From: Patescibacteria group bacterium | GTDB taxonomy: Bacteria; Patescibacteriota; Microgenomatia; UBA8517 | Direction of reading: 5' to 3' | DNA: 64,000 bases | Assembly (NCBI GenBank): GCA_026416845.1 | Contig: JAOAEL010000003.1 | Span: 78,047 to 142,046 of the forward strand | Shown here: positions 14,169 through 52,428 of the stretch, piece by piece | Position numbering within the stretch: position 1 is the first letter of the stretch | Layout: every line of letters begins with the position of its first letter | The notes under the pieces: generated by a model | Database searches by the model: none | The model's input: the letters and a program-made list of their open reading frames with translations, nothing else | Told to the model about the DNA's origin: nothing | Translations under genes and position numbers: made by a program

Positions 14169-14189
14169 TAACCAATATTTTAAAAACAA

Positions 14190-16194: not shown

Positions 16195-17322
16195 ATGAAA
16201 GTTGAAGTTAATCAAGAAGATCTGGTTCAAAAATTAGCAATATGTTCTAGATTTACAACTTCAAAAGTACAATTGCCCATATTAGCAAATGTCCTGATTA
16301 CAGCAACTTCTAACAAAATTACATTAAAAGCTACAAATCTAGAGAGCTCCATCAGTTTTAGTATGGGTTCAAAAGTGATTGAAGAGGGAAGTATAACAAT
16401 ACCATCAAAAACTTTTTACGAAATTGTCTCTAATTTATCCAAAGGAGTTTTAACTTTAGTTGCTGAAAAAGAACAGTTACATATTTTTCAGGAAGGATAT
16501 AATGCTTTGCTTGTAGGAATAAACAGTTTGGACTTTCCGGATGTGATTTCAACACCTCCAAAAGAAGGTATGTCATTCCAAGGGAAAGAAGCAATAGAAA
16601 TTTTTCAAAATGTTCTTTTTAGTGTGTCTTCTGACGAAGCAAGACCTGTTTTGAATGGTGTTTTGTTTATTTTTGATGATCAAGAAAACATTGTTTTTGT
16701 ATCAACTGATGGCTTTAGACTCACCAAATTTGTCAAAAATATCAAAAAAGAAAATAAAAATGTAAATAAATTATCTGGTAGAATAATTATACCCAAAAGC
16801 ACTCTTGTTGAAGTATCAAAGATTTTTCAAGAAAATACTTTTACACTTAGCTTGATTGAAAAGGATAAGCAAGTTGTTTTTTCAGACGGTCTTTCTTGTG
16901 TTTTATCTTCAAGGATAATAGAAGGAGAATTCCCAAATTTTGAAAAAATATTGCCTAAAGAATCAAAATTGACTTTAAACGTCTCTAGAGATGATTTTTA
17001 TCAAGCGATTAGATTAGCTTCTGTTTTTGCCAAAGATTCTTCTAATGTAGTTACCTTTGATATAAAAAAAGATGATATGTTTGTAAAATCAGAAAATTCA
17101 ACAACTGGCAAACAATCAAAAAGAATTTTCTTTAAAAGGGTAGAGGGAACTGAAGAAGAAATGAAAATTTCCTTTAATTTTCATTTCTTAGATGACTTGT
17201 TAAAAGTAATTAAAGGTGAAAGCTTGGAAATAAGAATTTCATCCCCATTTTCTCCAGTTTTGTTTTTAGATCCTATTTGCAAAGAATTTATACATGTCAT
17301 AATGCCAATTAAAACTCTTTGA
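16195..17322 (+). CDS. dnaN: DNA polymerase III beta sliding clamp
   Basis: 375 aa, directly downstream of dnaA. Three-domain clamp length. Motifs such as RPVLNGVLF and STDGFRL. Confidence 0.9.
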   Translation: MKVEVNQEDLVQKLAICSRFTTSKVQLPILANVLITATSNKITLKATNLESSISFSMGSKVIEEGSITIPSKTFYEIVSNLSKGVLTLVAEKEQLHIFQEGYNALLVGINSLDFPDVISTPPKEGMSFQGKEAIEIFQNVLFSVSSDEARPVLNGVLFIFDDQENIVFVSTDGFRLTKFVKNIKKENKNVNKLSGRIIIPKSTLVEVSKIFQENTFTLSLIEKDKQVVFSDGLSCVLSSRIIEGEFPNFEKILPKESKLTLNVSRDDFYQAIRLASVFAKDSSNVVTFDIKKDDMFVKSENSTTGKQSKRIFFKRVEGTEEEMKISFNFHFLDDLLKVIKGESLEIRISSPFSPVLFLDPICKEFIHVIMPIKTL

Positions 17323-17338
17323 TTTTTCTTATCTCTTA

Positions 17339-18640
17339 TTATTGGATTTTTACCTTTTTTGTTTTGCCTTCGAAATCGATTATATAAATATTATTTTCAA
17401 CTATTCCTTGAATATATGTGACTCCGCTATTTTCCGTACCAGAAATTTTTATTCTTGGCGAAGTTTGTCCTGATCTAGTATCTAAGTAAAAGTATTCCGT
17501 TCCTGTTGTTGTATTTTCCATAAATATAATTATATTATTATCTTTCCATATGCCAATTAAACCTGTTTTTGGGAATTTAATTTGTTGAGATTTATTTGTT
17601 TCAATATCATAAATTGTAATGCCATTTGATGAAATTGAACAAACCTTTTTTCTATCTGGAGAGACTGAAAAACTATTTTGTTTAGATTCAAATAAAATTT
17701 GATTTTTATCAAGATCTATTACTTGGACTTCTCCACTATCTAGGGCTTCTCCTATTTCAACTAAAGCAACTATTGAATCTTTTAAAGCAAATACTTGGTT
17801 TGCTTCAGTCATCAAAATCTGAGAAGGTTTAAAATCATCCAAATTTGATTTGTATAATATCGACATTTTTGTTTGAGGCGTATAACTGCCAATTACATAC
17901 AAATTTTCATTATCTTCTGATATAGAGATAGATGAAATAGGAGTCAGCAGTTCGCTTCCTTTTAGTTTTTTTACTGCTCCAGTATTTATATTTATTAAAA
18001 CAATTTGATCATTTTGTTCAATTTTTCTTTCTAAAACTGCAATATAATTTTTGCCCTTTTGGTATGAAAAAACACTTTTAGGGTACAGAACTGTGACAAA
18101 TTTTTCGTCTGTAACTTTTACTAAACTTTGTTCTCTTGGATCGATGGCAAGAAAAGAACTTTCTGATATTGGTGTTATTTTTATATATTGACTTTCGTTT
18201 ATTGATACTGGCACTGATGAAACTTCTTTTGCAACTTCTTGTATTTTTTCAAGAGATATTTCTATTTCAGTGTCTTTATATAGATCGATAATTTCTTTTT
18301 TGTCTATGTAGTTTTGTTCTGAAATTAATATTTCGTATTTTCCTTTTGGAAGGTACAATTTAACTTTTCCTGATCCTTTTTCTTCGTTATTTAAGTATAT
18401 TTTTGCTGTAGAAGGGTCTGTTTTTACACTTAGGTAGAATTGTTTAATTTCACTTTTTTTTAAATTATTTGTTTTTTCTTGATTTAGATAAATTCCATAA
18501 ACTGCTAGGAGAAAAATTGTTACAAAAAAAACAATAAACAATATTTTATGTTTAAAAATAAAATTTGTAGCTTTTGATAAAAAATCCTGATTTTGGTACA
18601 TTGCTTTTTTATTATATATACAATTATTATATATATACAA
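17339..18640 (-). CDS. Hypothetical membrane-anchored protein with a PEGA-like domain and a beta-propeller-like (TolB/WD40-like) C-terminal region
   Basis: N-terminal TM (ILFIVFFVTIFLLAVYGIYL). PEGA-like KIYLNNEEKGSGKVKLYLPKGKYEILISEQNYIDKKEIIDL. Repeated beta-strand-rich segments. Last gene of the minus-strand VirB4 operon. Confidence 0.45.
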   Translation of the reverse strand: MYIYNNCIYNKKAMYQNQDFLSKATNFIFKHKILFIVFFVTIFLLAVYGIYLNQEKTNNLKKSEIKQFYLSVKTDPSTAKIYLNNEEKGSGKVKLYLPKGKYEILISEQNYIDKKEIIDLYKDTEIEISLEKIQEVAKEVSSVPVSINESQYIKITPISESSFLAIDPREQSLVKVTDEKFVTVLYPKSVFSYQKGKNYIAVLERKIEQNDQIVLININTGAVKKLKGSELLTPISSISISEDNENLYVIGSYTPQTKMSILYKSNLDDFKPSQILMTEANQVFALKDSIVALVEIGEALDSGEVQVIDLDKNQILFESKQNSFSVSPDRKKVCSISSNGITIYDIETNKSQQIKFPKTGLIGIWKDNNIIIFMENTTTGTEYFYLDTRSGQTSPRIKISGTENSGVTYIQGIVENNIYIIDFEGKTKKVKIQ

Positions 18641-18671
18641 TTTTAATTTTAAGTTATTATAACTTTAACTA

Positions 18672-21787: not shown

Positions 21788-23674
21788 TCATGTTTTTCTT
21801 TGTAGTAACTCTTGAGGTTTTGTTGTTATTAGTTTATGTTCTTCAGGTGATGCGATTACAGAAATTGGTACATGATTATTGCCTGCAAAAAATATGCCTT
21901 GTCCAATATTACTTCCTAGAAGTAATTGTTTTTCTCCTTGAGACAAATAAAAAACTTGTGTTATTTTATCGATTGCAGCTGGAGATTGTTTAAAAAGTAC
22001 TCTAAGAGCTGCGTTTGTAACTACTGCTTTTCCTATATCTTGGCTTAAAAAATCTTCAACATCTTGTGTAATTGTTGTAATTCCCAAGTAATATTTTCTT
22101 GCTCGTTTTACAATTGACCAGAGAAATTGTGCGCTATCTGAATAACGCATCATATGCCATGCTTCATCTACTATTAGAATACGAGGCTTTAGTTCTTTTT
22201 TTACTCTAGTCCATATATAATCAAGAATTATAAACATTGCTATGGGTCTTAATTGATCTTGTAACTCTCGAACTGAAAAAACGGTAAATGGGTTTGTAAT
22301 ATCAAATGTTGTTTGTTGATCGAATATTCCTACATAACTGCCTTTTACAAATTTTTCTATTCTAGCTGCCAAATCTAGTGCTTCAGTAGTTTCCATACCT
22401 ATTAAAATTTTATATAGATCTTCAATTAAAGGTGGTTCTTTAGTTTGTGTTTTTGGATCTTGAGTAATTCCTTTAGATTTATAGGTGGCTACTAAGGCTC
22501 GATCTAAAATAGCTTCTTGATATGGACTTATTTCTCCCATAATTATTTTAAATAATGAATGTAGTGAAAGTATTTTTAAACCTAGTTGATTTTCTCCTTC
22601 TTCGTTTATGTAAGATAAATCAAATGGATTTATTTTTACAGCTGAATTAAATGAGAAAGAAAGGTACTGTCCGCCAACTGCATCGCAAAGTGTTTTGTAT
22701 TCGTTTTCTGGATCAATTATTATTATGTTTGTTCCTAACATTAAACTTCTTAGTGCTTCGAGTTTGACAAAATAACTTTTACCGCCACCTGAGCTTCCAA
22801 ATATGACCATGTTTGAATTTTCTAATGAAAATCTATCAAAGACTATAAAAGATCCATTTTGAGAATTGATGCCATACAAAACACCTTTGTCGTGTGAAAG
22901 CTCGGCTGAGGTTAAAGGAAACATTGTTGCGAGTGAAGTAGTATCCATATTTCTTGTTATAGATAATCGATCCATTCCAAATGGCATTGTTGATAAAAAT
23001 CCATTTTCCATATCTAAAGTTGCGTGTTTTGCTGTTACCAAAACTGAACCGAGTGTTGATTCTATTTGTTTTGTTATTTGATTTAATTGTTCAAGACTTG
23101 CTGCTCTAACTGTTACATAAAATGAAAACTCATAAAAATGTTCTATTCCTTTAACCAATTCTTGTTGAAGCCTTCTTGCGTCTTCCAATTTAGCTTCAGT
23201 TGATGGATTTAATATCTTGCCTCTTTCCAAATCTGTTGCGATTTCTGCTTCCATTTCAGCTATTTTGCGCATTAAATCATTTAAAACATCTTTTCCTTTT
23301 ACAGGATAAATAAAAAATGAAATATCTAAAGAGCTATTAAAGTTAACTAATTGTTCTAACCAGCCCGGAGAAACAAATCTAGGATATCCAGATATAAACA
23401 AGGATCTTAAATATACATCGCCTATTTTTATGTGGTCTAAATCTATTTCTATTTCATTTGTTGCAATTACATTTACAAGTGGAACTCTTTCTTCAAACAC
23501 CGCTTTAGCAATATTGGGGTATTGTGGTTTTTCTCCATGTATTAAAATTTCTTCTTGATTTTCATGATTTTCATTTTTTGATTCCTTTTTTTTTATTACA
23601 GTTTCTGTTATGGGATCAATTGTAAAGTTTATTTCTTCTTTTTTTTGAAAAGGTAAAAAACTTATATTTTTCAT
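21788..23674 (-). CDS. VirB4/TrbE/TraC-like type IV secretion ATPase (central and C-terminal ATPase portion)
   Basis: Walker A FGSSGGGKSYFVK, Walker B ILIVDEAWHMM, and the conserved VirB4 block YLGITTITQDVEDF. Confidence 0.8.
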   Translation of the reverse strand: MKNISFLPFQKKEEINFTIDPITETVIKKKESKNENHENQEEILIHGEKPQYPNIAKAVFEERVPLVNVIATNEIEIDLDHIKIGDVYLRSLFISGYPRFVSPGWLEQLVNFNSSLDISFFIYPVKGKDVLNDLMRKIAEMEAEIATDLERGKILNPSTEAKLEDARRLQQELVKGIEHFYEFSFYVTVRAASLEQLNQITKQIESTLGSVLVTAKHATLDMENGFLSTMPFGMDRLSITRNMDTTSLATMFPLTSAELSHDKGVLYGINSQNGSFIVFDRFSLENSNMVIFGSSGGGKSYFVKLEALRSLMLGTNIIIIDPENEYKTLCDAVGGQYLSFSFNSAVKINPFDLSYINEEGENQLGLKILSLHSLFKIIMGEISPYQEAILDRALVATYKSKGITQDPKTQTKEPPLIEDLYKILIGMETTEALDLAARIEKFVKGSYVGIFDQQTTFDITNPFTVFSVRELQDQLRPIAMFIILDYIWTRVKKELKPRILIVDEAWHMMRYSDSAQFLWSIVKRARKYYLGITTITQDVEDFLSQDIGKAVVTNAALRVLFKQSPAAIDKITQVFYLSQGEKQLLLGSNIGQGIFFAGNNHVPISVIASPEEHKLITTKPQELLQRKT

Positions 23675-24373: not shown

Positions 24374-25387
24374 TTAAATAGGGCTTATGATTAATGGTTT
24401 TAGAATCTCGCCTTTCAAAATAATTGTTATTGGTTCGAATTTATAATTTTCTTTTTCTGTCAAGATTTGATACTGACCATTTGCAAGAGGTGTTATAATT
24501 GCGAAGTGTCCTAAACTATTGCTTTTTAAAGCTCTAACTGGCAACCCATTTTCATCTCTAATTTCTATAATTGCGTTTTCGATTATTTTTCCGTCTTTTG
24601 TTATAACTTGACCTACAACAGTATTGGGTTGTGTCGGAAAAGCAGGGTGTGTTTCTGTTGAAAATTTTGCCGTTTGAGTTTGTTGGAAAATTATTTCTCC
24701 TAATATTGGTTTAATTTCTGAGTTTTGCGTGAATCTATCTATTTGTTTTGGTTCATAAACATAAGAGTTTTGATCTTTTACTTGATTTATTATACGTACA
24801 TTTTGTGTTTGTGGAATAGAAATTTCAGTTTTATTTACACCAGATAAATCTTTTTGAATTGCTTCTAAAGGATTTTCGTTTATGTGCTTGTCAACTTTAT
24901 TTAAAAATGCTGCCTCTTTTTTTTCTAGCACAGCTTGCCAAGAATAGCTTGTTTTTTGTTTGATTTCTTGATTGTTTGTTTGAATTTCTAAATCATTACT
25001 TGAAGTGTTTTGAGTAATTTCTTGTTCTTTGTTTTGGAATTGTTGTAATTCTGCTTGATAGGATGGAAGTTCGTCTTGAAAATAATACGGTTTTTGGTAA
25101 TTAGCTTGCCATTCGTAGAGAGTTGGTGAATAAATTGATTTAAAAAAAAGAATTATCCAACGTGAAAGTGGTCTGTCTTCAACAGGGAAAAAAGCTAAAG
25201 CAATACCTAATAAAAAGGCAAACAGCATTAATGGCCATTTGATATAGGATGGAAGTCCCGATGAATACAAAATCAATGCAACCAACGTGCCACCAGCAAC
25301 TTGGAAGAATTGTTTTATTGTCATATCTCCTACCAATTTGAATTGGTATGAAGATATTTGTTGGGGAATTGCATGTTCTTGGTCCAT
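24374..25387 (-). CDS. Membrane protein. N-terminal two-TM VirB3-like segment plus C-terminal carboxypeptidase-regulatory/Cna-B-like beta-sandwich.
   Basis: Two hydrophobic helices (GGTLVALILYSSGLP; PLMLFAFLLGIALAFFPV) placed directly upstream of VirB4, as for VirB3/TrbD. C-terminal GQVITKDGKIIENAIIEIRDENGLPV..GHFAIITPLANGQYQILTEKENYKFEP fold motif. Confidence 0.4.
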   Translation of the reverse strand: MDQEHAIPQQISSYQFKLVGDMTIKQFFQVAGGTLVALILYSSGLPSYIKWPLMLFAFLLGIALAFFPVEDRPLSRWIILFFKSIYSPTLYEWQANYQKPYYFQDELPSYQAELQQFQNKEQEITQNTSSNDLEIQTNNQEIKQKTSYSWQAVLEKKEAAFLNKVDKHINENPLEAIQKDLSGVNKTEISIPQTQNVRIINQVKDQNSYVYEPKQIDRFTQNSEIKPILGEIIFQQTQTAKFSTETHPAFPTQPNTVVGQVITKDGKIIENAIIEIRDENGLPVRALKSNSLGHFAIITPLANGQYQILTEKENYKFEPITIILKGEILKPLIISPI

Positions 25388-25608
25388 AGTAATTAGTTTG
25401 TTTAAGTTAAGTTATAAGTTAATAGAATTTTTTACATTTATTTTGAATTTTTTAATTTAAAAGTTATAATTGTACAAGAAAAATTTAATTTAGGCTAATT
25501 TGTGATAGAGTCTTAATCTAGATTTATATATAGTATTTTATATAATATAATTTTTAAAGTGGTTTAATAATTTTAAATAATTTAATAACTCTAGTTTAAA
25601 TAGTGTTT

Positions 25609-27993
25609 ATGGATAATGAAAGTAACAAAAATTTACCGCAATATGATCGTTGGTCCTTTGATGAACTTTTGGGTATGGTAGAGAACAATCCGTATAACGA
25701 AGAGTGCAAGCGGGAATTTGAAAAAAGAAAAGAAATTTTAAGCAATGACAATCGTTTAGTTCAAAAAATTTTAGAAGAATTTTATTCTCTAATAAGAAGT
25801 GGTGAACTTTTTCCAAACTTTAAGGAAATAGAGGGTCGAATACTTTCAGAGTTTCCGAAGTTTGATTCTGATAAGTATAAAGGAATGATTGCTGACACAG
25901 TTAAATCTGTTTTTGAAGAATTTAATTTTAGAAGAAAAATAGGAACTAGTTTTCAAAAATTTGAAAGAGATAAGCTAAATGAAAAACAGAGAAAAACTTT
26001 TGAAAATATTTTATCTCATCGATATGTAAATGTAACTATAGATTGGACTATTGTAGATTTAGATTTAATAGTTTATGGTAGTGATCGAGAAAATATAGCT
26101 AGAGAAGGGTATCAGCAAGTAATAAATTTGCTTTTGCAAATTATTCAAGACAAGAAACGAAAAGATGACGATAGAATTAAAGCCGGTGATGCAATTCGAT
26201 CAATTTTCAAAGAATTGGGTAGAGAATTAGGGCTAGAATGGGTTGGCAGTTTTTTAGATACACTAGAAAGCATAATTAATGATCCAAATTTCAAATCTAA
26301 GAATGATTTAATCAAAAGCTTAAAAGCATTTATTGACATTATGGAATATAGTGTTTATCCGCATAATGGCTGTTTAAAAATTGAAACAGTTGAAAAATTG
26401 CTACACAAATATCTCAGTGTTAGACAAAAATATGGAGGAATTATAAATGCTTTGTTATCAGGTTTAATTCGGTACGCTGAAGTTATGACAAAAGAAGAAA
26501 AAGATAAAAATGAAGAACTTGATGACATTAAAAAGTTTGAGATTTTGGTTAATCCAAAGTACTTGGAATTTTTTGACAGAATTGAATCTGATGATCAAAA
26601 AAGAGCGGAACAAATAATTAGTTTTGCCGGAAAAGAAAAGGAAAAGCAAGTTGACAAAGAAAAACCACAAGTTGAGGAATCTTTGCATATAGAAATTTTT
26701 AGTTTGTTGTCAAAAATTTTAGATTCAGATATCCCTATAGTCCCAAGGCAAAGTTTTGAATTACCAGGTTTAAATTCTGGTTGGGTTCAAAAAACTTTAT
26801 TTCAGGAAATTATTAGTTTAAATGAAAAAAATAAAGATGAAAATTTCAGAAAATTTGTAGAATCCGTTTTGTCAATTGTTGATTCTTACTCTGTGTTAAA
26901 AATGTGTTTAGAATCTTCTGGTAATGATTTAACAATTTTTGGACAGCGTGTCAGAATGTGTTACCTAACTGAAGAATTAAAGGAATATCTTGTTACTCCA
27001 GATAAAATACTTTGTGCTTATTCTGATCATAGATTAGTTGTGCCTTTCGCTTTGGAATTGCTAAAGCGTGCTAGCACTGACAATGGTTTAGATGGGTTAG
27101 GAAGATTGAACGCAAGACAACCAGGAGAGAGCAATGCTCAGTTTGAAGCCAGAATAAAAAATATAAAAGATAGAATTCTTTTGGAGCTAAAGAATGAGTG
27201 TGAAAATAAATTAATTGCTGGTTTAAGTTTAAAAATTGCGGAGAAAATTGCTAAGATTACATTTTTAGAATTTTTTTGGGATAATCAGTTTTTACTTGGA
27301 AAAATATCGAAAATGATGAATTTTAAAGAATATAGAGAGAGATTAAAGGATAGCGGTGATGTTGGTCCGAAGGATACTATTGAGATAATTCCAACTTTAT
27401 TGTCTCCTTTTAATAAGTATGAGAGAATTGAAAATGGGGGAGAAGATTTTGATATAAAAACTGTTCAAGACATTGAACGTTTATATTTTGGTAGTAAGAA
27501 AGAATCTTTGGATTTATCCGAAGATTTTAAAAATTCTGGTAGATACTCTTGGCTCGATTATTGTTGTGTTGTTATTCCAAAATCTGCCAAAGCTTTTGAT
27601 CGACTTTTAAATACTAATCCGCCACAAACGCTAGAAGAGGCTGAAGCTATAGCAACTGAATTAAATAGCGCTGATCCTAAAGGACGTTTCCGTTTGCTTG
27701 TTATATATATGTTGGGAATAATTCGCACAAATGATGCAAATGAAAAATTTGATCCTCGTAAGTTTCGATCTTTTTTTTATCAATACAGTTTAAAAAAAAC
27801 AATTTTAGGACGATTTTTGCCAAAATGGTTAATTAATATTTTTGACACTAGAGGTAAAAGAACTGTGGAGTACATAACCGAAGAACAAGAAGAATGGCTT
27901 TATTATAAAACCAGTGGAATTGGAAATTTTTTTGAAAAATTTGAAAAATCTGTCAATTTACCTCCGATAAAAAACAAGAACAAAGAAAATTGA
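25609..27993 (+). CDS. Hypothetical K/E-rich soluble protein (796 aa by the track from GTG 25603; first ATG at 25609)
   Basis: Long uninterrupted ORF on the opposite strand, embedded in the T4SS-like locus. No recognisable motif. Confidence 0.4.
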   Translation: MDNESNKNLPQYDRWSFDELLGMVENNPYNEECKREFEKRKEILSNDNRLVQKILEEFYSLIRSGELFPNFKEIEGRILSEFPKFDSDKYKGMIADTVKSVFEEFNFRRKIGTSFQKFERDKLNEKQRKTFENILSHRYVNVTIDWTIVDLDLIVYGSDRENIAREGYQQVINLLLQIIQDKKRKDDDRIKAGDAIRSIFKELGRELGLEWVGSFLDTLESIINDPNFKSKNDLIKSLKAFIDIMEYSVYPHNGCLKIETVEKLLHKYLSVRQKYGGIINALLSGLIRYAEVMTKEEKDKNEELDDIKKFEILVNPKYLEFFDRIESDDQKRAEQIISFAGKEKEKQVDKEKPQVEESLHIEIFSLLSKILDSDIPIVPRQSFELPGLNSGWVQKTLFQEIISLNEKNKDENFRKFVESVLSIVDSYSVLKMCLESSGNDLTIFGQRVRMCYLTEELKEYLVTPDKILCAYSDHRLVVPFALELLKRASTDNGLDGLGRLNARQPGESNAQFEARIKNIKDRILLELKNECENKLIAGLSLKIAEKIAKITFLEFFWDNQFLLGKISKMMNFKEYRERLKDSGDVGPKDTIEIIPTLLSPFNKYERIENGGEDFDIKTVQDIERLYFGSKKESLDLSEDFKNSGRYSWLDYCCVVIPKSAKAFDRLLNTNPPQTLEEAEAIATELNSADPKGRFRLLVIYMLGIIRTNDANEKFDPRKFRSFFYQYSLKKTILGRFLPKWLINIFDTRGKRTVEYITEEQEEWLYYKTSGIGNFFEKFEKSVNLPPIKNKNKEN

Positions 27994-28003
27994 AAATTGA
28001 ATT

Positions 28004-29728
28004 TTAATTGTTTACCACCAATCTGCTTTTAAGCATTTTTTTGCCTGTTGAATGAGCCGCTTTGATAGCTTCAGCAAATCTGAATTTACTTCTGTCTTTA
28101 ATTGATTCAACGCCATAACTTACAAGCCCTCTTCCAAAACCAGTACCATATTGTCCTATAGCATCAGATGCCATACCATAACCAGCAATAGATTGTCCTA
28201 TTGCACTTCCATAAGCAAAAGGTTGACTAGATATTAAAGACTGAATAAATTCTACTACTTTTGGTGTCATTGCAACGCATGCATAGCTAGCAAAAAGCCA
28301 TAAAAGCGAGATTTGTTCTGATCCAAAAGTCATTGGAGGAGCCCACCCTGAAATTGCGCCTTCATTTCTAAACAGACTACCATTAACACCAAATCCAAAA
28401 AATCCTATCATAAGTGCATTGGGATTTGAGTTATTGAAAACTGGATTTAGGAAATTAAGAAGATCTCGCGAAAATGAATTATCTACAAAAAATGCTCCTG
28501 ATAAAAATATATAAGACATCATAAACAAAACTCCTACAGTAGGATAAACAGCCAAGTTTTGAATGATACTTGAAATCCATTTTCTGAATCCACCAAAACC
28601 TGGATAAACTGAGCCTATAAGTATTTGAAATGGCCCTAAAATAACAAGAAGCAATAAATTTGCGAAAGATTTTATTAATATCCATGATACTTTGAAAAAT
28701 ATAAAGAGCAGTGAAATGCTCAAAACTATTACTAGCACAACAAGTATTGGCTTAAAAAGACCAATAGATACAGATGTTGATAATATTGAAACAAGGTTTG
28801 CTTCTGGTGTGAACAAAACAAAAGAGTAAGCTGCTACAAAACTTTGGAAATAACCAAGCAAGAAACCAATCAAACCTAAACCTCCTGGACCATTAACAAG
28901 TACTTGATATATAGTTAAAGCTGGATTTTGGTTGTTAGACACAAATATGCCTGTTTGCGTAAATGTAATACTAATAAGGCCAATAATTATATACATTAAA
29001 TCTACCGCAAAACCTGCTATTGCATATGAAAAAGTTATCAAAATAAGAGTCTTAAAAACTGTCCATAAAGAAGATTGGACGGTAACAACTGCTTGCGGAG
29101 ATATTTGCATTCGAAACATTATCATAAAGGATAAAAATATAATGACTAAAACAATCAAAACATAAGTTACATCTCTTGCTGCTTGCCATAGACCTCGAAC
29201 TGGAGATAGCCCTCTAAAACCAGTCCCTTGAGAATCTGCTGCAGATTGCGCATAGACATTTGACAAACCAAATTTTTCAATAGAGTTTCTGATATAACCA
29301 ATACCTGAAACTGGACGATCTTGTGTTGTAGAAAATGCAATTACTTCAGCAGAACTTTTTACTCTTTCGGCTATTGACTTTTCGTTTAATGGAGTAGCAT
29401 CTGATATGGGGGTAAACATTCTAGCATACTCAGTTGCACAACCTGTTACATCAAAAGTTATATTGCAAGCTATTATTCTTTTAGGCAGTGGTATTAATTG
29501 AACTAAGGAATAAAAAATCCATTGGACCTGAGCAGCAGTGTACCTTTCTCCAAATATTTCTTGAGGGTTACTATCTTCATAAACTTTTATAAACCACTGA
29601 GGAAATGTTTGATCATACCAAGGACCCACTAACTGAGCATGAACTACCTTTGCGGATGGCAAAATATACAAAAAAGCAAATAAAATTAGCGGGAAAAAAA
29701 GTGATAAAAAAAACTTTTTGTTAAGCAT
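28004..29728 (-). CDS. Polytopic membrane protein, VirB6/TrbL-like candidate
   Basis: Signal peptide/TM (FFLSLFFPLILFAFLYILP), ~170-aa extracytoplasmic domain, then >=6 TM helices. Location in the VirB4 locus. No catalytic motif. Confidence 0.45.
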   Translation of the reverse strand: MLNKKFFLSLFFPLILFAFLYILPSAKVVHAQLVGPWYDQTFPQWFIKVYEDSNPQEIFGERYTAAQVQWIFYSLVQLIPLPKRIIACNITFDVTGCATEYARMFTPISDATPLNEKSIAERVKSSAEVIAFSTTQDRPVSGIGYIRNSIEKFGLSNVYAQSAADSQGTGFRGLSPVRGLWQAARDVTYVLIVLVIIFLSFMIMFRMQISPQAVVTVQSSLWTVFKTLILITFSYAIAGFAVDLMYIIIGLISITFTQTGIFVSNNQNPALTIYQVLVNGPGGLGLIGFLLGYFQSFVAAYSFVLFTPEANLVSILSTSVSIGLFKPILVVLVIVLSISLLFIFFKVSWILIKSFANLLLLVILGPFQILIGSVYPGFGGFRKWISSIIQNLAVYPTVGVLFMMSYIFLSGAFFVDNSFSRDLLNFLNPVFNNSNPNALMIGFFGFGVNGSLFRNEGAISGWAPPMTFGSEQISLLWLFASYACVAMTPKVVEFIQSLISSQPFAYGSAIGQSIAGYGMASDAIGQYGTGFGRGLVSYGVESIKDRSKFRFAEAIKAAHSTGKKMLKSRLVVNN

Positions 29729-29816: not shown

Positions 29817-32800
29817 CTATCTTTTAATTTTTATTTGATAATATCGTAGTAAATTTTGACCTACAAATTGATCTGGTTCGGACGGAGGGAATTCTTCGAC
29901 TACTCCGTGAATTATTATTTCTTGATTTCTTACACTCGCATCATTATCTGCATTTGCCACAAAGTAATCTGATCTAATACTGTAAATTCTACTCCAATTG
30001 CCAGAAGGATATTTGTATGTGTAATAAATCATTTTATAATCGCCACCGGCCCAAAAAACGTGAATTCCTCCAAGACTGTCCACGCTTATTGATGGATCGC
30101 CCCATACATCTGTTGAATCTGATATTGTTTCTATGTTCCATTCGTTTTGTGAAGATCTAATATCTTTGGATGCTACATACACTCTGGAAAACCTTCTTTC
30201 TTGGCCAATATATCCAATATCTCTAAATGCTACGAAAACTTTTCCTGAAGAATAGGCATGATTTGGATTTGCGTAATCAAACGCTCCTCCTTTGCCTTCC
30301 ACTACCAAAGACTCAAGGTCAAATTGCTTGGTCCTTTCATTAAAATTCAAGAAAAATATGTCGCCTATACTTTTATTTGCTGCTCTTGCCCCTCCATATA
30401 CCAAAGATATTATTCCGTCATTGGAAACAGCTAAATCTGGTTTTTCTCTGCCGTATATTTTGTAAGGGGATGCTCTTCTTGGATCAGACCAACTATTGCC
30501 GTCGTCTGTGGAGTATGAGTACATTACAAAATTTGCGTTTTCATTTGTTGCTTCGTTCCAAACAACAACTGCCAAATCTCCAATTGCTGCCACTCTTGGA
30601 TGATTAATGCTTGGCCTGTTTGTTGCAACAACAATAGGATTTGTTTGTTCTGATATGGAATCAATGTTTGTCAGAGGAGCTTTTTTGAAAAGTATTGTTT
30701 TTGATTCATGAGTCCAAACATAGTAAAGTTTTGAATTTGCGATGTAATTATGTGTAGTTCTATAATCTGCTTGTACTCCATCTCCTTGTCCAACATTTAT
30801 TTGTGATTGTGGAAATCTTTGATCTGAAGATGGTTTGGTTCTCAAAATAGCATTTTTATCATAATTGTATGATAAGTAAGTATGTGTATCATTGGCAGAG
30901 ATTATTGGATTTTTTATGCCTGAAACTATGTTGGTTGATTCTTCTAAGCAAACATTTTCAGATTGTCTAGGTAAATTTGGCAAAATTTCAAACGTAATAT
31001 CTTCAGAAACTTCTTCGGGCATTGTTTGTTCAAACATCCACAAAGCATATATCATATTTGAAAGTAGTTGCTTGGCTGCGGGGCTTGTAACTATGCTTCC
31101 ATCTGTTACACCTCCGCCGTAGTTGGCTCCTTCTGTATTCAGATATATTGCCATTTTTGGATCTTTGCCTAACATAAAGGTAAAAAATTGCATTCTTTTT
31201 GTTGTTGTATTTTCTGAATCCGATTGTCTCCACTCTCTACCACCTTCAAGAATATCCTCCATACTTGCATTTTGTAATTGTCCAAGAAAATCCCTTACTA
31301 AACCTCTGTTTTGGTTAGGATGGGTATAGCTCCAATACCTTGCTCTACTTGATCTGGAGCTATTTTCTACGACTCTTTTTAAAACTTCTTGCAAAGTTTC
31401 ATCTGAACTGCCATAAATTTTTTGAAAGGTTAATTTATACTTTTTTCCTGTTTCTGTTGCCTGAAATCCAGCTACTTGAATAAGAAAATCTTCAGTTCTT
31501 CGGTTTTGATTGTCTACTGGACCTGTATAATAACAGAAATTGCTTATGCTCCATGCACTGTCTGTTCCACCCAAGTTAGATATAGAATTAGAATTTTCGC
31601 CATCGTCGCAATTGTAAAGGTAAGGATCGGGCCAATATGAGTTTCCTGTTTCGTACCAAATCCATGCAGTTGTCAAATACCTTCTGATCCTATCATAGTT
31701 TCTGGATAGCAATTCTCGCTCTGCATTTAACAATTCTGCTGTAGACCTTTTTGCATTTTCATTATTTACAATTTGATTATACAATTGCTGGTATCCTCTT
31801 ATAGTTTGGTTGTAGGTTGCTTCTCTTACCGGATCTGGCAATTTGTAATTTCTTATAATTTGAAGTATTTGCTCCCTTGTTATTTGATTTCCCGGAGGAG
31901 ATGGTTGTCTTGGGCTTGGATTTGGATTTGTGTTATTTTGATCAAGATCTGAACAAGACAAAATTTCTCTTGGTGCTCTTCTGTTTGAAGTTGACGCTGG
32001 GGGTATAAATCTTCCGCCAAATCCTTTTGGTCTCAAGCTGGTTTGTAAACCTTCCAAGAAGTAATGGTATATTCCACCTAAATGAGGGAAATATACATGG
32101 GCACTTGATGGGTCTATTCCACTTCTGAAGTCGCTTAGTCTTATTGTTGTATTTGAAGAGTAAGATGCATAACTTGCCCCCGGCATGTCCCAAAATTGAG
32201 TTATAAAACTGTCTTCGCCTAATTTTGGTAAAATTCTACGTAAAATACTTGTTGGTCCAGCAACTGTTCTTGACCATATAGAGTCTAAAAGAGGGACACG
32301 AGTGTTTACATCGATTGTATTTGGAATAGTATACGAACATGTTGTGCTTATTTCTTCTGGAGGTTCACATCCCCATCCACAAATATAATTCTCTCTACAT
32401 AAATTAAGAGAATTATCAAAACTTCCTTGACAGCTATAATTTGAAGGGGCACATGCTAAAGATCCTGAATTACTACATATTTCTAGAGATTGACAGTTTT
32501 GTTCAAAATGATTTCTGCAAGCATCTGTGGCATTTTCCAGTGGCAAAGGGAATGTACAACTTATTTGAGCTTTGTATGACAATGTTGCTTGAAATCCATC
32601 GGCAAATATTGTGTCTCCAAGTGGTCCATCTCTGTATTCCAAAGCTTGGCAAGCCCCAAAAAAATTGTTTGATATATCGGTATTCCCGCTTAAAAAGACA
32701 TCTCTGAACACATCTTTTTCTAATGCTGGAGCATTTTTGGGTAAGTCGTATGGAACATACATTGATTGCATTATTTCGCTTAATTCTTCGGATTGTTGCA

Positions 32801-34244
32801 AGTGTGGAATGTAAAGATTTGAGGAGAGCCTGTCTCCGGTTAAACTTCTTTCTGTGACTGTCACATTTTCTGGTTGTTCTTGTTCTTGATCAGTTGCTAT
32901 TTGCAAACTATATTCTCCTAATCTGTCTTCTGTTGATGCCATTGGAATATGTTGGAAAAACTCGTCATCTATTGATCTATTTGAAGGATTTTGAATTACG
33001 CTTTGTACTCCTGTTGTAGGATTATCGAAACAAAGAAAAACACCTACTCCTTGCAACCAAGTTGGCACAAGATTGCTTAAAGGTTCTCCTGCCTTAGGAA
33101 ACCTTATTTCACGACAACTTTGACCGCGCCACTCATTTAGATCTCGTACATATTCTGCCCATTCTCTTGTTCCATATTCTTCTTCTTTTGGTGGTATTGC
33201 ATTCCTTCTGGCCCAAAATCCAATTCTTAAGCCAGTTAATTGTGTTATTCCAAAGGTTTGGATTAACGTGTCAAAAATCCGATTACCTGTTGTTATATAA
33301 TTGCAAGGAACTGGAACATTGCCAATTATCATGTTATTAATTCTCATACTTATTATGCATATTATTACTTGGTTATGTCTGGGGGTTGGGTTGTTAAAAG
33401 ATGTTTGATTTTGAGAATTTCTCCCTTGCCCAACTAAGCCTGTTGCTTGTATTTGCCTTTCTCTTGCCAAATGCTGAATTCTTTGTGGAAGCATTTTGTT
33501 TAAAGGTCCAGAATAATCTATGACTTTTCTGAAAGAATCTGGATTTTCGGTAAAAAGTCCTGTTAATGCATTTATTATTCCCATGAAAGGATAGAAATAC
33601 TCAGCGCGATAGGTTACTCCGCCTAAGTACCATGTTAGGTAGTTGTTCATTTTTTGAGCATGATCGATTTCTTCGAAAAGACTGAAAAGATTTGTGTTTC
33701 TTGCGTTTCTTACATTTTGTGTGTTTCCCAAAACTGGCAAATCCAAAGCATCGAGATCGATAGAGATTTGTCTTTCTCTGTTAATATCAAAATTGCAGTT
33801 TTGAGCCAAATTTTCCTCTGTGCATCTTGTTGGGCTTATTTGAGTTGCACCTTGATTGTTTGGTGATAAGATCTGAAATCTTCCTGTTTCAAATTGAAAA
33901 TTTATTTGCACGGTATCTTCCAAAATTATGTCGTTTCCGCAAAAAAGAGCTATTTGCGATTGAGGTGTGTTGTTTGGTAAACAAGGACTTGCCTGATAAG
34001 GTCTCATAGAGTGGAATTCTTCTAACGGGTGACTTGAAAAGAATAGATTTATTGTCGAATTTAAAGGTCTAACTTGGTTGCATGGTACGTTGGGTGTTGG
34101 CATGGCGTTTTGAATTGCGTTTTGGGTTGGTGTGATTGCCGGACTTTGTGCCAAAGTTAGTTTGGTTGATAAAAATAAAAACAAAAAACCATAAAACAAA
34201 TTTGTGAAAAATAAGAAAAAAGCCAAGAATTTTCGAGTGTGCAT
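29817..34244 (-). CDS. Giant secreted Cys-rich surface protein (1475 aa) with a C-terminal BNR/Asp-box repeat
   Basis: N-terminal signal peptide (FLAFFLFFTNLFYGFLFLFLSTKLTLAQSP). Many Cys pairs (CGWGCEPPEE, CSNSGSLACAPSNYSCQGS). One Asp-box match S-x-D-x-G-x-(S/T)-W (TDDGNSWSDP) near the C-terminus. GC above local background. Confidence 0.55.
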   Translation of the reverse strand: MHTRKFLAFFLFFTNLFYGFLFLFLSTKLTLAQSPAITPTQNAIQNAMPTPNVPCNQVRPLNSTINLFFSSHPLEEFHSMRPYQASPCLPNNTPQSQIALFCGNDIILEDTVQINFQFETGRFQILSPNNQGATQISPTRCTEENLAQNCNFDINRERQISIDLDALDLPVLGNTQNVRNARNTNLFSLFEEIDHAQKMNNYLTWYLGGVTYRAEYFYPFMGIINALTGLFTENPDSFRKVIDYSGPLNKMLPQRIQHLARERQIQATGLVGQGRNSQNQTSFNNPTPRHNQVIICIISMRINNMIIGNVPVPCNYITTGNRIFDTLIQTFGITQLTGLRIGFWARRNAIPPKEEEYGTREWAEYVRDLNEWRGQSCREIRFPKAGEPLSNLVPTWLQGVGVFLCFDNPTTGVQSVIQNPSNRSIDDEFFQHIPMASTEDRLGEYSLQIATDQEQEQPENVTVTERSLTGDRLSSNLYIPHLQQSEELSEIMQSMYVPYDLPKNAPALEKDVFRDVFLSGNTDISNNFFGACQALEYRDGPLGDTIFADGFQATLSYKAQISCTFPLPLENATDACRNHFEQNCQSLEICSNSGSLACAPSNYSCQGSFDNSLNLCRENYICGWGCEPPEEISTTCSYTIPNTIDVNTRVPLLDSIWSRTVAGPTSILRRILPKLGEDSFITQFWDMPGASYASYSSNTTIRLSDFRSGIDPSSAHVYFPHLGGIYHYFLEGLQTSLRPKGFGGRFIPPASTSNRRAPREILSCSDLDQNNTNPNPSPRQPSPPGNQITREQILQIIRNYKLPDPVREATYNQTIRGYQQLYNQIVNNENAKRSTAELLNAERELLSRNYDRIRRYLTTAWIWYETGNSYWPDPYLYNCDDGENSNSISNLGGTDSAWSISNFCYYTGPVDNQNRRTEDFLIQVAGFQATETGKKYKLTFQKIYGSSDETLQEVLKRVVENSSRSSRARYWSYTHPNQNRGLVRDFLGQLQNASMEDILEGGREWRQSDSENTTTKRMQFFTFMLGKDPKMAIYLNTEGANYGGGVTDGSIVTSPAAKQLLSNMIYALWMFEQTMPEEVSEDITFEILPNLPRQSENVCLEESTNIVSGIKNPIISANDTHTYLSYNYDKNAILRTKPSSDQRFPQSQINVGQGDGVQADYRTTHNYIANSKLYYVWTHESKTILFKKAPLTNIDSISEQTNPIVVATNRPSINHPRVAAIGDLAVVVWNEATNENANFVMYSYSTDDGNSWSDPRRASPYKIYGREKPDLAVSNDGIISLVYGGARAANKSIGDIFFLNFNERTKQFDLESLVVEGKGGAFDYANPNHAYSSGKVFVAFRDIGYIGQERRFSRVYVASKDIRSSQNEWNIETISDSTDVWGDPSISVDSLGGIHVFWAGGDYKMIYYTYKYPSGNWSRIYSIRSDYFVANADNDASVRNQEIIIHGVVEEFPPSEPDQFVGQNLLRYYQIKIKR

Positions 34245-34268: not shown

Positions 34269-34655
34269 TTATCTGCTTGGTCCTCCTGGTCTGGTATCTC
34301 TTCTTTGAGTTTCCCATTCAGGGCAAGGATTTATTCCATTATATATTCTAAAGCTTGTGATTGTATTTCCTGCTCCTGTGAATGTTGCGATTAAATTTAT
34401 TATAAAAAACGAAAGCACAATAACTACAAGTCCTCCAATAGCATAAGTTAGAGTGCTTTTTGCCTGCTCGACTTTTTGAGAGTTTCCTTCAGATGTTATG
34501 TATTTAAAGCCTCCTATTATTAGATATATAAAAAGTACAATTCCTGCGAATCCCAAAACGTAGCTTAAAATAGTTCCAAATATGTATTCAAGTTGACAGA
34601 GTTGAGCTGCTTCTCTTGTTTGTGTTTGTGCTTTTACTAAACCTGAAAAAAACAT
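34269..34655 (-). CDS. Small two-helix membrane protein, VirB2/TrbC-type pilin-like candidate
   Basis: 128 aa with two long hydrophobic helices (FGTILSYVLGFAGIVLFIYLIIGGF; IGGLVVIVLSFFIINLIATFTG) separated by a short polar loop. First gene of the operon with the 1475-aa protein and the VirB6-like protein. Confidence 0.4.
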   Translation of the reverse strand: MFFSGLVKAQTQTREAAQLCQLEYIFGTILSYVLGFAGIVLFIYLIIGGFKYITSEGNSQKVEQAKSTLTYAIGGLVVIVLSFFIINLIATFTGAGNTITSFRIYNGINPCPEWETQRRDTRPGGPSR

Positions 34656-35935: not shown

Positions 35936-36784
35936 ATGCAAATAAAAAACGATGTTGCCAAATTTATGCAAGAATCAAATTTAAGCTTGTTTCAGCTTTT
36001 GCTAGTTGTTTCTTGTGAAGAAAAGCAAAAAATTTCACCTTTCTTCCCCATAAATAGTTTGGGAACAATTTGTTATTTGATAATCTATACAATTTATGGC
36101 CAAGATTTGGCTTCTCATGCTTTGAGTCAACTTAGAACTGCGTTTGACTTTGTGAATGATTGTGATTGTGCAATAGAAAAAGGCAATTTTGATATTTCAA
36201 AATTTAGAAATCATGAAGCTTTAGAAAAATTGCGAAAAAGTTTACCTACAACCTTTTTTTCTTCTGTTGTCGAAAGGTTGGCAACACAATCTTTGCCAAT
36301 GTTTGTGAATAACAATAAGTATTATAGTTTTAAAATTGCTAACAACATGCCTTTTGTTTTTGAAGATATTTTAAATTACTTGCAAATAAAATCTGCTGAT
36401 GCTTTTTTATATAGCGCTATAATAGAAGGCATTGCTCCAGATTATATTTCGTATATTCAGCCGTTTTTGTACAGTGTTTGGCAGATGAATGATTTTGTTG
36501 ATGATTGCATAGATTACAATGATGATATTAAAAATAAACAGCCAAATGCTTTTAAAATGATTGAAAATTTGTACCCAAAAGAAGGAGATATATTTGAGTA
36601 TGCCAAAAATTTTTTATCTAAGCTAGAAAGTGAAATTTTGAAAAATAAATTGCCGGAAGAGTTGAGTTATTTGTTAGGCATATCAGAAATTTTTAAAAAG
36701 GCAGGCTTTTCAGTAATTGAAGAATTGAAAAATCAATTTCAAAATAAAAATCAAAATTTTGCGGCTTGTGTTAATCTTGCTTAA
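35936..36784 (+). CDS. ~280-aa all-helical protein with an acidic DDxIDYxDD motif, copy 1 (paralog of 38278-39084). Possibly of the isoprenoid-synthase-like fold.
   Basis: Aligns along its length with the 268-aa paralog, e.g. FRNHEALEKL/FRNHEAKLKL, YSFKIANNMPF/YQYKIANNLPF, IKSADAFLYSAIIEGIAPDYIS/IKSADSYIYGAILEGMIPDYIS and WQMNDFVDDCIDYNDDIKNKQPNAFKMIENL/WQINDLVDDFIDYDDDKKDNQPNALSMIENL. Confidence 0.5.
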   Translation: MQIKNDVAKFMQESNLSLFQLLLVVSCEEKQKISPFFPINSLGTICYLIIYTIYGQDLASHALSQLRTAFDFVNDCDCAIEKGNFDISKFRNHEALEKLRKSLPTTFFSSVVERLATQSLPMFVNNNKYYSFKIANNMPFVFEDILNYLQIKSADAFLYSAIIEGIAPDYISYIQPFLYSVWQMNDFVDDCIDYNDDIKNKQPNAFKMIENLYPKEGDIFEYAKNFLSKLESEILKNKLPEELSYLLGISEIFKKAGFSVIEELKNQFQNKNQNFAACVNLA

Positions 36785-37205: not shown

Positions 37206-37727
37206 ATGAGAATATCTAAAAAATTTTTTACACGAGATGTTTTAGAAGTTGCTCCAGATCTGCTTGGCAAGTTTATTTGCAGAAAATTTAAAGATGGTTC
37301 TATCCAGAGAAATTTTATTGTTGAGGTTGAGGCCTACAGAGGAGAGGAAGATATGGCTTGTCATGCTAGGTTTGGAAAAACCAGACGTAATCAGGTGATG
37401 TATGAGGAGGGAGGTAAAATCTATGTCTACCTGATTTATGGCATGTATTGGATGCTTAATATAGTTACAGGCGGTAAGGCAGATCCTCAAGCCGTTTTGA
37501 TAAGGGGAGTTGAAGATTTAACTGGTCCCGGTAGAGTTGGGAAGTGGCTTTTGCTGGATAAGAGTTTTTATGGCGAAGATGTTACGACAAGTAAGCGTTT
37601 ATGGATTGAGCAAGGGAGTATTTTTGGCAAATTTTTTGTAAAACAAACTTCCAGAATTGGGGTAGATTATGCAGGAGAGTGGGCTAAAAAACCGTGGCGT
37701 TTTGTGCTGGTGGAAAGAAGAAAGTGA
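37206..37727 (+). CDS. mpg: DNA-3-methyladenine glycosylase (Mpg/AAG family)
   Basis: FFTRDVLEVAPDLLGK..VEVEAYRGEEDMACHARFGKTRRNQVMYEEGGKIYVYLIYGMYWMLNIV..AVLIRGVE..GPGRV matches Pfam 3-MeA glycosylase (AAG) motifs. GC content is clearly higher than in flanking DNA. Confidence 0.8.
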   Translation: MRISKKFFTRDVLEVAPDLLGKFICRKFKDGSIQRNFIVEVEAYRGEEDMACHARFGKTRRNQVMYEEGGKIYVYLIYGMYWMLNIVTGGKADPQAVLIRGVEDLTGPGRVGKWLLLDKSFYGEDVTTSKRLWIEQGSIFGKFFVKQTSRIGVDYAGEWAKKPWRFVLVERRK

Positions 37728-38277: not shown

Positions 38278-39084
38278 ATGTTGTCTATCCAAAATAATGT
38301 TGGGGTCTTCTTAAAAGAAAACAATCTTGACTTGTTTAAGTTGCTTGTTGTTTTGGCCAAAAAGCATGGGCAACGAATTGATGAGTTTTTTCCTGTTAAT
38401 CGTTTAAGTTCAGTTTACTATGCGATAATTTATACCGTTTTAGATGAAGATCTTGCCTTAATGGCTTTGGGTCAAATTAAAACGGCTTTTAATTGGATAG
38501 ATGGTATAGATGTTGCGATAGAAGGTGGCAATTTTGATGAAAATACTTTTCGTAACCATGAAGCAAAATTAAAATTAGAAAAAGAGGTTCCTACATCATT
38601 TTTAAAGTCGGTTTTGGAGAGAGTAGTTAGCCAATCAGTCCCAATGCTTATTTCTCAGACAAAGTTGTACCAGTATAAGATTGCAAACAACTTGCCATTT
38701 ACAGAAGAGGAAATTGTAAACTATCTTCGTATAAAATCTGCCGATTCTTATATCTATGGCGCCATCTTAGAGGGAATGATACCTGATTATATTTCTATTT
38801 TGCAGTCTCCTTTGTCGAAGTTATGGCAAATCAACGATTTAGTTGATGATTTTATTGATTATGACGATGATAAAAAAGACAACCAGCCCAATGCGTTGTC
38901 TATGATAGAAAATCTTCATGGCAGACAAGAATCTGTTTTTGATTACGCAAAAGCTTTTTTGGCAAGACAAAAAGAAGAGCTTGTAAAATTTGATTTACCA
39001 AAGGAAATTATTTATCTTGCTGATATGCCCAACATTATTGAAAGGGTAGGCATTAAGGTTTTAAGTAGCAGGTTTGGAAACTAG
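38278..39084 (+). CDS. ~270-aa all-helical protein with an acidic DDxIDYxDD motif, copy 2
   Basis: See 35936-36784. Collinear paralog (roughly 40-50% identity by eye). Confidence 0.5.
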   Translation: MLSIQNNVGVFLKENNLDLFKLLVVLAKKHGQRIDEFFPVNRLSSVYYAIIYTVLDEDLALMALGQIKTAFNWIDGIDVAIEGGNFDENTFRNHEAKLKLEKEVPTSFLKSVLERVVSQSVPMLISQTKLYQYKIANNLPFTEEEIVNYLRIKSADSYIYGAILEGMIPDYISILQSPLSKLWQINDLVDDFIDYDDDKKDNQPNALSMIENLHGRQESVFDYAKAFLARQKEELVKFDLPKEIIYLADMPNIIERVGIKVLSSRFGN

Positions 39085-52333: not shown

Positions 52334-52428
52334 GTTTTTGTACCTTGAATATTTGGATTTTTTGCCTTTTAATTAAAATTGCCAAGAAAAAAACGCAATT
52401 TAATTAATAGAAAGGGGGTGGAAAAAGT

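Follow-up and report, generated by a model that had tools for sequence, protein, structure and literature searches.

Within a 64,000-nucleotide stretch of a Patescibacteria group bacterium (assembly GCA_026416845.1, contig JAOAEL010000003.1, positions 78,047 to 142,046; hereafter, the window), an open reading frame (ORF) on the minus strand at 29817..34244 begins with ATG, spans 4428 nucleotides and encodes a giant protein of 1475 residues. This protein is identical to the GenBank "hypothetical protein" N2558_02385, from a metagenome-assembled genome of the Patescibacteria group. Its gene stands inside a type IV secretion system (T4SS) cluster (Table 1): a VirB2-like pilin gene lies 24 nucleotides upstream on the same strand, and a gene for a polytopic membrane protein follows 88 nucleotides downstream. 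No terminator-like site was found in either of these two gaps, and the scan for promoters and terminators was at chance level (32 found vs. 27.4 expected). We describe herein the domains, relatives and genomic setting of the giant protein, and suggest, with somewhat more confidence than doubt, that it is a Sec-exported, disulfide-stabilized extracellular subunit of the T4SS that brings wall-degrading or glycan-binding modules to the pilus or channel.

Table 1. Features of the giant protein and of the T4SS cluster that surrounds its gene (positions are those of the window)
Feature	Position	Strand	Basis
Sec signal peptide (predicted), residues 1-32	34149..34244	-	Hydropathy, family N-termini, AlphaFold2 (AF2)
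Family core, residues ~45-745	32010..34112	-	Homologue alignment, AF2
Cys-dense core sub-region, residues 530-640	32325..32657	-	11 Cys, ~10%
Pro/Asn/Ser-rich linker, residues 746-800	31845..32009	-	Predicted local distance difference test (pLDDT) <50 for 749-785
All-alpha mid module, residues ~801-1075	31020..31844	-	AF2 secondary structure
Sialidase-like beta-propeller, residues ~1098-1475	29820..30953	-	AF2, Foldseek
Single strict Asp-box STDDGNSW, residues 1245-1252	30489..30512	-	Pattern search
VirB2-like pilin gene	34269..34655	-	PF18895 E=2.6e-10, NF045849 E=1.4e-11
Polytopic membrane protein gene, 574 residues, signal peptide and about 7 transmembrane segments	28004..29728	-	Hydropathy
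796-residue protein gene, no transmembrane segment, no Pfam match	25603..27993	+	Pfam, hydropathy
PrgI/VirB3-like gene	24374..25387	-	Profile searches
TrsD-like gene, 226 residues	23677..24357	-	Matches N-terminal part of VirB4 and TrsD models
VirB4 gene	21788..23674	-	Profile searches
DnaJ-transmembrane-M23 peptidase gene, 988 residues	18672..21638	-	DnaJ E=4.7e-17, transmembrane segment 602-620
PEGA-domain protein gene	17339..18640	-	Profile searches

The part boundaries of the giant protein come from BLAST mapping of 60 homologues, which divides it into four parts. Its N-terminus reads as that of a Sec-exported protein, the signal peptide being judged by its pattern: MHTRK is followed by a hydrophobic stretch of 21 residues (6-26, by hydropathy) and then by T-L-A↓Q-S (the arrow marks the boundary), and AF2 places a helix at residues 2-26 and disorder at 27-42. 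An equivalent N-terminus, ending in (I/L/V/T)-x-A↓Q, is present in 170 of the 175 members of the core family described below that have a complete start. The secretion that had been predicted for this protein is thus supported by a Sec-type pattern both here and in its relatives. To our knowledge, the substrates of T4SSs have no Sec signal peptide, and are recruited from the cytoplasm by the coupling protein or VirB4. VirB1, VirB2, and VirB5 are exported T4SS parts that do carry Sec signal peptides. A protein with such a signal would reach the outside independently of the T4SS channel. Delivery of the giant protein as cargo of the neighboring T4SS, as the original prediction had suggested, is therefore unlikely: the family carries Sec N-termini, and there is no coupling protein in the window.

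The original prediction had centered on the C-terminal propeller, but the conserved part of the protein is a core of 700 residues, the propeller being a lineage-specific addition. This core spans residues 45-745 in all 52 first-round homologues, which range from 810 to 1460 residues in length. With an alignment of homologues as input, AF2 modeled it as a compact alpha/beta domain (pLDDT, 80; predicted template modeling score, 0.79). Conserved motifs are EFHS(L/M)RPYQASPC, GNT(E/Q), RHNQ, SSTEDR, two FPH, and GLQTxLRPKG, and the invariant polar residues are H78, R81, Y83, T175, H290, D440, H481, D544, H721, Q734, and R738, which could, as a sequence pattern, mark an active or metal site. No match to the core was found by Foldseek in PDB or BFVD (best E values, 1.1 and 0.48; TM-score, <0.1), nor in Pfam (down to E<=10), NCBIfam, or profile searches of PDB sequences. 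Weak Foldseek rows for luteovirus readthrough and ssRNA-phage maturation proteins were set aside as noise. The whole giant protein matched nothing in Pfam or NCBIfam at E<=0.01, and neither it nor the core profile gave anything significant against PDB sequences (phmmer and hmmsearch).

A search with the core profile retrieved 763 representatives (of clusters at 50% identity) at E<=1e-3 and 533 at E<=1e-30, the best 150 of which were all long proteins, and a scan of one genome per species gave 57 core-family loci. Informatively titled loci belong to Candidatus Woesebacteria, Microgenomates, or the Patescibacteria group. Among L005-L060, many loci with full T4SS synteny of the Patescibacteria type belong to third-party metagenome-assembled genomes whose record title, "uncultured Gammaproteobacteria bacterium", is almost certainly a placeholder or a wrong taxonomy. 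The core family is undescribed: it is absent from Pfam and NCBIfam, has no structural neighbor in PDB or BFVD, and was not found by a text search of PMC12102498 and PMC10633639 or in a further literature search. Patescibacteria T4SSs and T4SS wall hydrolases are already known, and the giant protein is classed as an accessory protein of such a system with an undescribed core, not as something categorically new.

The cysteines of the protein had been predicted to be numerous and paired, in disulfide-rich modules. Conserved and co-varying pairs were indeed found, but it is the core only that is rich in cysteine: of the 24 in the protein, 20 lie in residues 45-745, two in the mid module, and one in the propeller, so that the content of the core is 2.85% vs. 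0.97% in the other ORFs of the window. Most core cysteines are kept in 85-100% of the 52 homologues, making about 10 conserved pairs, and some co-vary in pairs among homologues (377/405, with r=1.0, 584/590, 605/616, and 563/622). In the densest sub-region (530-640), pLDDT is mostly 87-97, and the number of cysteines differs among homologues. Since the core cysteines are conserved and co-vary in pairs, they point to disulfides, as expected in an extracellular protein.

The core gene has a fixed genomic position. In all 60 loci compared, a pilin homologue lies directly upstream of it on the same strand, and a homologue of the polytopic protein lies downstream in 51 of them, the remainder being mostly cut by contig ends; homologues of PrgI, TrsD, and VirB4 are found further downstream in related loci. 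The core and polytopic genes are direct neighbors in 34 of 49 loci, with no ORF of >=60 residues between them; the gap is mostly about -43 to +145 nucleotides (500-600 in a few). The gene order of the window is shared by five metagenomic contigs (loci L001-L003 and L063 and the P0007 locus), including distant members that are 24-28% identical, and reads: pilin array, core gene, polytopic gene of 520-580 residues, large opposite-strand gene, PrgI-like gene, TrsD-like gene, VirB4, and a fusion of a J-domain with a peptidoglycan hydrolase. Because of this fixed position, tight spacing, and want of an immunity partner, the core gene behaves as a structural gene of the T4SS. The predicted linkage to T4SS-like genes is thus well founded, the pilin gene lying close upstream here and directly upstream in all 60 loci. 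Of the predicted VirB6-like neighbor, the topology and the conserved position stand, but neither Pfam nor NCBIfam recognizes the polytopic protein, which we regard as a candidate VirB6/PrgH analogue from topology and position only.

The same synteny bears on the possibility that the giant protein is an enzyme akin to polymorphic toxins, secreted against other bacteria or to lyse the host, whose gene merely lies near a T4SS. We consider this improbable. A conserved N-terminal region joined to variable C-terminal enzymatic tails would suit such a toxin, about 10 loci have an ORF of 140-190 residues just downstream that might encode an immunity protein, and T4SS-linked peptidoglycan-hydrolase effectors are reported in Xanthomonas (10.1101/2023.08.28.555164). 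However, no ORF separates the core and VirB6-like genes in the 34 abutting loci or in the window, the synteny with pilin genes is far tighter than expected of a cargo gene, the Sec signal peptide speaks against T4SS-dependent translocation, and a highly conserved core of 700 residues, with its invariant positions, far exceeds the usual size of toxin trafficking domains. A polymorphic toxin paired with an immunity gene was rejected, there being no constant downstream ORF.

Nearly all core-family members carry a tail of 170-270 residues after the core. These tails form three clusters (c1-c3), one recognized by Pfam as SLT_3 (ESGG...GLFQIN) and two with SLT-like motifs, and all three carry E-S ... 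G-L-x-Q motifs. Among 36 long members, an N-terminal NAGPA domain is present in 12, SLT_3 in five, and a GDSL esterase in one. Every accessory module recognized in the family acts on envelope glycans or shares a fold with proteins that do. The wall-glycan hydrolase modules of the relatives, which the original prediction had missed, point to envelope remodeling at least as much as to adhesion. The combination of mid module and propeller, in either order, is confined to the subclade P0001-P0007, and is absent from all 60 other loci.

The mid module follows the linker, which has the lowest identity to orthologues of any part of the protein. Its invariant residues are E842, E865, Q923, G926, Q928, K1027, D1028, and P1029. 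In the AF2 model, a helix ends C-terminally with E865, after which comes a beta-hairpin, QVAGFQ. A helix-end glutamate with a hairpin is the active-site topology of the lysozyme superfamily, which the mid module may share; the motifs also resemble, presumably, those of GH73 glucosaminidases, a likeness that serves as a lead. As modeled, the mid module is a candidate lysozyme-like glycosidase, probably a muramidase or a glucosaminidase. It was not assignable as an SLT domain, given an hhalign probability of <1% against the three tail clusters of the family, SLT_3 included. Foldseek with the two-domain model (781-1475) was dominated by propeller matches, and a mid-module profile run against a set of 5.8 billion proteins retrieved only a small family. 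The module recurs in separate Patescibacteria proteins of ~460-770 residues, several with a C-terminal Cys...His domain. It can lie N-terminal to CHAP: P0064 carries PF05257, and P0058 has a weak CHAP match (E=0.35). For one of these separate proteins, the gene stands amid T4SS pilin genes close to the replication origin. The giant protein itself has no CHAP or NlpC/P60 domain, according to Pfam.

The C-terminal part is modeled as a beta-propeller, as the original prediction had suggested, and is of the sialidase type. Propellers of this superfamily have six or seven blades, each a four-stranded antiparallel sheet, with Asp-boxes (S-x-D-x-G-x-T/S-W) recurring at equivalent blade loops. The AF2 model of residues 781-1475 (pLDDT, 78) has 27 strands within 1098-1475, which probably make up seven blades. 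Searched against PDB with Foldseek, this model gave 545 matches at E<=1e-3, the top 50 of which were all propellers with a probability of 1.0. The top match was the PL42 lyase 7esn (E, 5.5e-10), and further top matches were the endosialidases 3gvk, 3ju4, 4hiz, and 1v0e, NEU1, the pseudaminidases 2w38 and 3h6j, and NanA; KDNases and the Uly1 lyase were also matched. The best global superpositions were with the PLL lectins 8q81 and 8q82 (PLL3 and PLL4; TMt, 0.65-0.70). Identity to the structural matches is only 9-15%. In Pfam, BNR_2 (E=0.0037; 17.1 bits vs. a cutoff of 31.4) and BNR_4 (E=0.0065; 16.3 bits vs. 27.3) both remained below threshold. A repeat of the Asp-box had also been predicted; there is one strict Asp-box (chance expectation, ~0.01 per protein, estimated from the composition of the giant protein itself), but no repeat. 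Bacterial sialidases usually have several. The box is kept as DG(N/Q)(S/T)WS in P0002 and P0003, and a second Asp-box position, degenerate in the giant protein, is true in the relatives P0006 and P0007.

The hallmarks of a GH33 exo-sialidase are an Arg triad with the FRIP motif, a nucleophile pair of Tyr and Glu, and Asp as acid/base. When the seven propeller sequences are aligned, they show no Arg triad, no FRIP-like motif, and no invariant Arg, Asp, or Glu; only P, A, W, G, and Y occupy invariant positions, the one invariant Tyr lying near the C-terminal end, and "QRFPQ" at about residue 1150 is not conserved among the homologues. A catalytic sialidase was therefore rejected. A role of the propeller in binding a surface glycan is more probable than one in cleavage. 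These observations also weigh on the idea that the giant protein is an ordinary secreted glycoside hydrolase (a sialidase or polysaccharide lyase) for scavenging nutrients, encoded beside a T4SS by coincidence. Matches to sialidases, KDNases, and the PL42 and Uly1 lyases, with BNR_2 and BNR_4 as weak hits, speak for such an enzyme, as does the reliance of Patescibacteria on external nutrients (PMC12102498). Nevertheless, the propeller occurs in only seven family members, the conserved part is the T4SS-linked core, the propeller alignment shows none of the Arg triad, the FRIP motif, or invariant catalytic candidates, and the synteny is strict. We regard this idea as very improbable, even more so than that of a toxin; both fit the synteny and the residue-conservation data poorly.

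The domains of the giant protein evolve at different rates. The closest orthologue is only 57% identical, so that synonymous sites are saturated, and divergence was measured as the per-domain identity between the giant protein and its orthologues. Relative to P0004, identity is 22% in the propeller vs. 42% in the core and 43% in the mid module. The propeller is the fastest-evolving domain, which fits a role in target recognition. The original prediction also noted a guanine-plus-cytosine (GC) content above the local background; at 36.3% vs. an ORF mean of 33.6%, the giant ORF is indeed higher, but it is no outlier (z=0.58; rank 11 of 43 ORFs), and its GC content at third codon positions is average (z=0.08). 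Horizontal transfer, as judged from GC content, was rejected on the basis of that z value.

Among known proteins, the giant protein can be compared with the VirB1-type hydrolases of monoderm (MPF_FATA) systems, such as PrgK (pCF10), TraG (pIP501), TrsG, CD419, and CwlT (ICEBs1), and with a Patescibacteria example, SEML1_0006 of Southlakia epibionticum. These are exported or membrane-anchored multi-domain proteins with a lysozyme-like glycosidase (SLT, GH23, or GH73, with a catalytic Glu), and many, though not all, also have a CHAP or NlpC/P60 peptidase domain. Like them, the giant protein is exported and encoded in a T4SS cluster, and its relatives carry SLT_3 tails. Monoderm VirB1 proteins typically consist of a glycosidase and then CHAP (PMC12102498), a layout mirrored by the mid module-CHAP fusions found elsewhere. 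SEML1_0006, in the essential T4SS cluster of S. epibionticum, has two lysozyme-like domains and a cysteine proteinase (PMC10633639 supplement). Unlike the VirB1-type proteins, however, the giant protein has a Cys-rich core of 700 residues and a beta-propeller, is without CHAP or M23, and carries a mid module that is not recognizable by sequence as SLT, GH73, or any other lysozyme family; and whereas their genes lie downstream of virB4, the giant gene adjoins the pilin and VirB6-like genes. The propeller, for its part, shares its fold and a blade-loop Asp-box with GH33 enzymes (NanA and NEU1), pseudaminidase 2w38, GH58 endosialidases, the PL42 lyase 7esn, and PLL lectins, but differs from GH33 sialidases in having one strict Asp-box and no conserved Arg triad, Tyr/Glu pair, or Asp acid/base.

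A second comparison is with the tip proteins VirB5, TraC, and CagL of diderm T4SSs, which likewise leave the cell via Sec and have their genes placed between that of the pilin and virB6. VirB5, TraC, and CagL are thought to mediate target contact; VirB5 is an all-alpha protein of ~220 residues, and in the virB operon of Agrobacterium its gene lies just upstream of virB6. The giant protein might accordingly be a pilus-tip or other distal host-contact protein, a VirB5 or adhesin equivalent by analogy, whose core caps or decorates the VirB2-like pilus and whose propeller and hydrolase modules recognize and pierce the host envelope, enabling exchange between epibiont and host. The place of the core gene is invariably after the last pilin gene and ahead of the VirB6-like one. 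With a Sec signal but neither a membrane anchor nor a sortase motif, the protein would have to be retained via protein contacts. Its modules are swapped among lineages and its propeller diverges fastest, as expected for a variable host surface, and the best global superpositions of that propeller are with lectins. The role of VirB5 also stands vacant, no homologue of it being known in Patescibacteria T4SSs (PMC12857230). However, no VirB5 similarity was found: the core is an alpha/beta domain of 700 residues without sequence or fold similarity to VirB5 or TraC (Pfam, NCBIfam, and PDB), and the analogy is one of position only. Gene order is weak evidence, moreover, and the pilus itself is only presumed to be made. 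A location at the tip is a tentative proposal, which we think rather unlikely. It overlaps with the T4SS subunit that we favor, and only the location and the target differ.

The T4SS of the window would be a chromosomal, relaxase-less system of a Woesebacteria/Microgenomates-type Patescibacterium, and the giant protein, as the subunit proposed above, would work in it as follows. The 700-residue core would be a part of the machine, produced jointly with the pilin (VirB2-like) and the polytopic, VirB6-like protein. It would probably dock onto the pilus or channel outside the membrane, and serve there as a platform for interchangeable modules that address envelope glycans. In most relatives the platform would bear a lysozyme-like tail of the SLT type, to which NAGPA, a phosphodiester glycosidase, is sometimes added N-terminally; in the subclade P0001-P0007 it would bear the all-alpha module with its invariant helix-end Glu, and then the putative glycan-binding propeller. 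The modules may open or recognize the wall, that of the cell itself or that of a host cell, where the pilus or channel passes. In this way, the giant protein would supply a VirB1-type function that sequence searches rarely find in Patescibacteria.

Several points weigh against this proposal. The physical or structural link of the core to the pilus or channel is one that we infer, and the core has no recognizable fold relative in PDB or BFVD by Foldseek. With its invariant His, Asp, Arg, and Gln residues, the core could itself have enzymatic activity instead of serving as a scaffold. Neither Pfam, PDB sequences, nor hhalign linked the mid module to a lysozyme family. Hydrolysis by the propeller is unsupported, with no conserved Arg triad or FRIP motif, and its binding of glycans is only assumed. 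Finally, S. epibionticum, the only Patescibacterium with T4SS genetics, requires its T4SS for epibiotic growth (PMC10633639), but, as judged from gene sizes and annotations (PMC10633639 supplement), apparently encodes nothing that corresponds to the core in the interval from the pilin genes to VirB6; for that reason, essentiality cannot be transferred to the core.

The rest of the cluster resembles published Patescibacteria T4SSs (Wang et al. 2023, PMC10633639; Quinonero-Coronel et al. 2025, PMC12102498) in being chromosomal and next to dnaA/dnaN, in having an MPF_FATA-like VirB4, TrsD, PrgI, and VirB2-like pilins, and in having peptidoglycan hydrolases next to virB4 and no relaxase or coupling protein nearby. 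It begins directly after dnaA/dnaN, and no relaxase or coupling protein was found among the genes of the window; a cluster with both of these features has been reported for Patescibacteria, and a separate TrsD-like protein before VirB4 is an arrangement typical of the group (PMC12102498). A minimum of cumulative GC skew (14000..19000) coincides with rnpA, yidC, dnaA, and dnaN, and is taken as the replication origin.

Several neighboring genes have features of their own. The pilin ORF begins with MFFSGLVKAQ..., leaving almost no signal peptide before the A↓Q boundary that the other exported proteins of the cluster also show; upstream of it are a 6-codon ORF and, at about 34690-34700, an extended -10-like element, TGTGTATAAT. 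The start of the pilin ORF may have been set wrongly, or the N-terminus of the pilin may be truncated. In the distant relatives L001-L003, a SpoIID-domain protein (560-600 residues) and a DUF5657 protein are encoded divergently from arrays of 5-8 pilin genes; the window has only one pilin gene and lacks SpoIID at that position, so that its cluster is a reduced version. The J-domain fusion at 18672..21638 is kept in relatives, with an M23 end in L002 and L063 and an Amidase_2 end in the P0007 locus, and a cytoplasmic J-domain with an exchangeable extracellular peptidoglycan hydrolase appears, from these sequences, to be a conserved gene of the T4SS cluster. At the place of the 796-residue gene, L001-L003, L063, and the P0007 locus have an opposite-strand gene of 750-1070 residues, and this gene is too diverged for tblastn. 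By analogy of position with the ARM-repeat protein SEML1_0011 of S. epibionticum, the product of the 796-residue gene may be a cytoplasmic partner of the T4SS.

Other parts of the window also drew attention. About 600 nucleotides at 52404..52992 have a GC content of 50% in a 32% GC genome, and contain overlapping ORFs of ~190 residues on both strands. This segment has no match in Pfam or Rfam, lies about 430 nucleotides upstream of tRNA-Asn (53418..53490), and may represent either a fragment of foreign origin or an RNA not described so far. Two paralogous genes, at 35936..36784 (plus strand; 282 residues) and 38278..39084 (plus strand; 268 residues), have similar N-termini and no Pfam match, and flank a methylpurine-DNA glycosylase gene (37206..37727). 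An ORF of 795 residues with a TTG start (9040..11427, minus strand) occupies the most AT-rich stretch of the window (22-26% GC), and has two transmembrane-like segments, 11 cysteines, and no Pfam match.

Neither the cargo of Patescibacteria T4SSs nor the way in which these systems reach the host is known (PMC12857230). In Microgenomatia, moreover, homologues of VirB1 and VirB6 are scarce, and an adhesin or VirB5 has not been reported (PMC12102498). Against this background, the core family offers a specific candidate for the component, wall-opening or host-contacting, that is missing from the Microgenomatia T4SS. It is conceivable, if doubtful, that the core represents a new fold and forms a platform at the distal pilus tip or channel mouth, fitted with swappable, host-matched enzymes and lectins that breach the host wall. 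The swapping of modules among family members could also give a genomic read-out of the type of host envelope in uncultured lineages.

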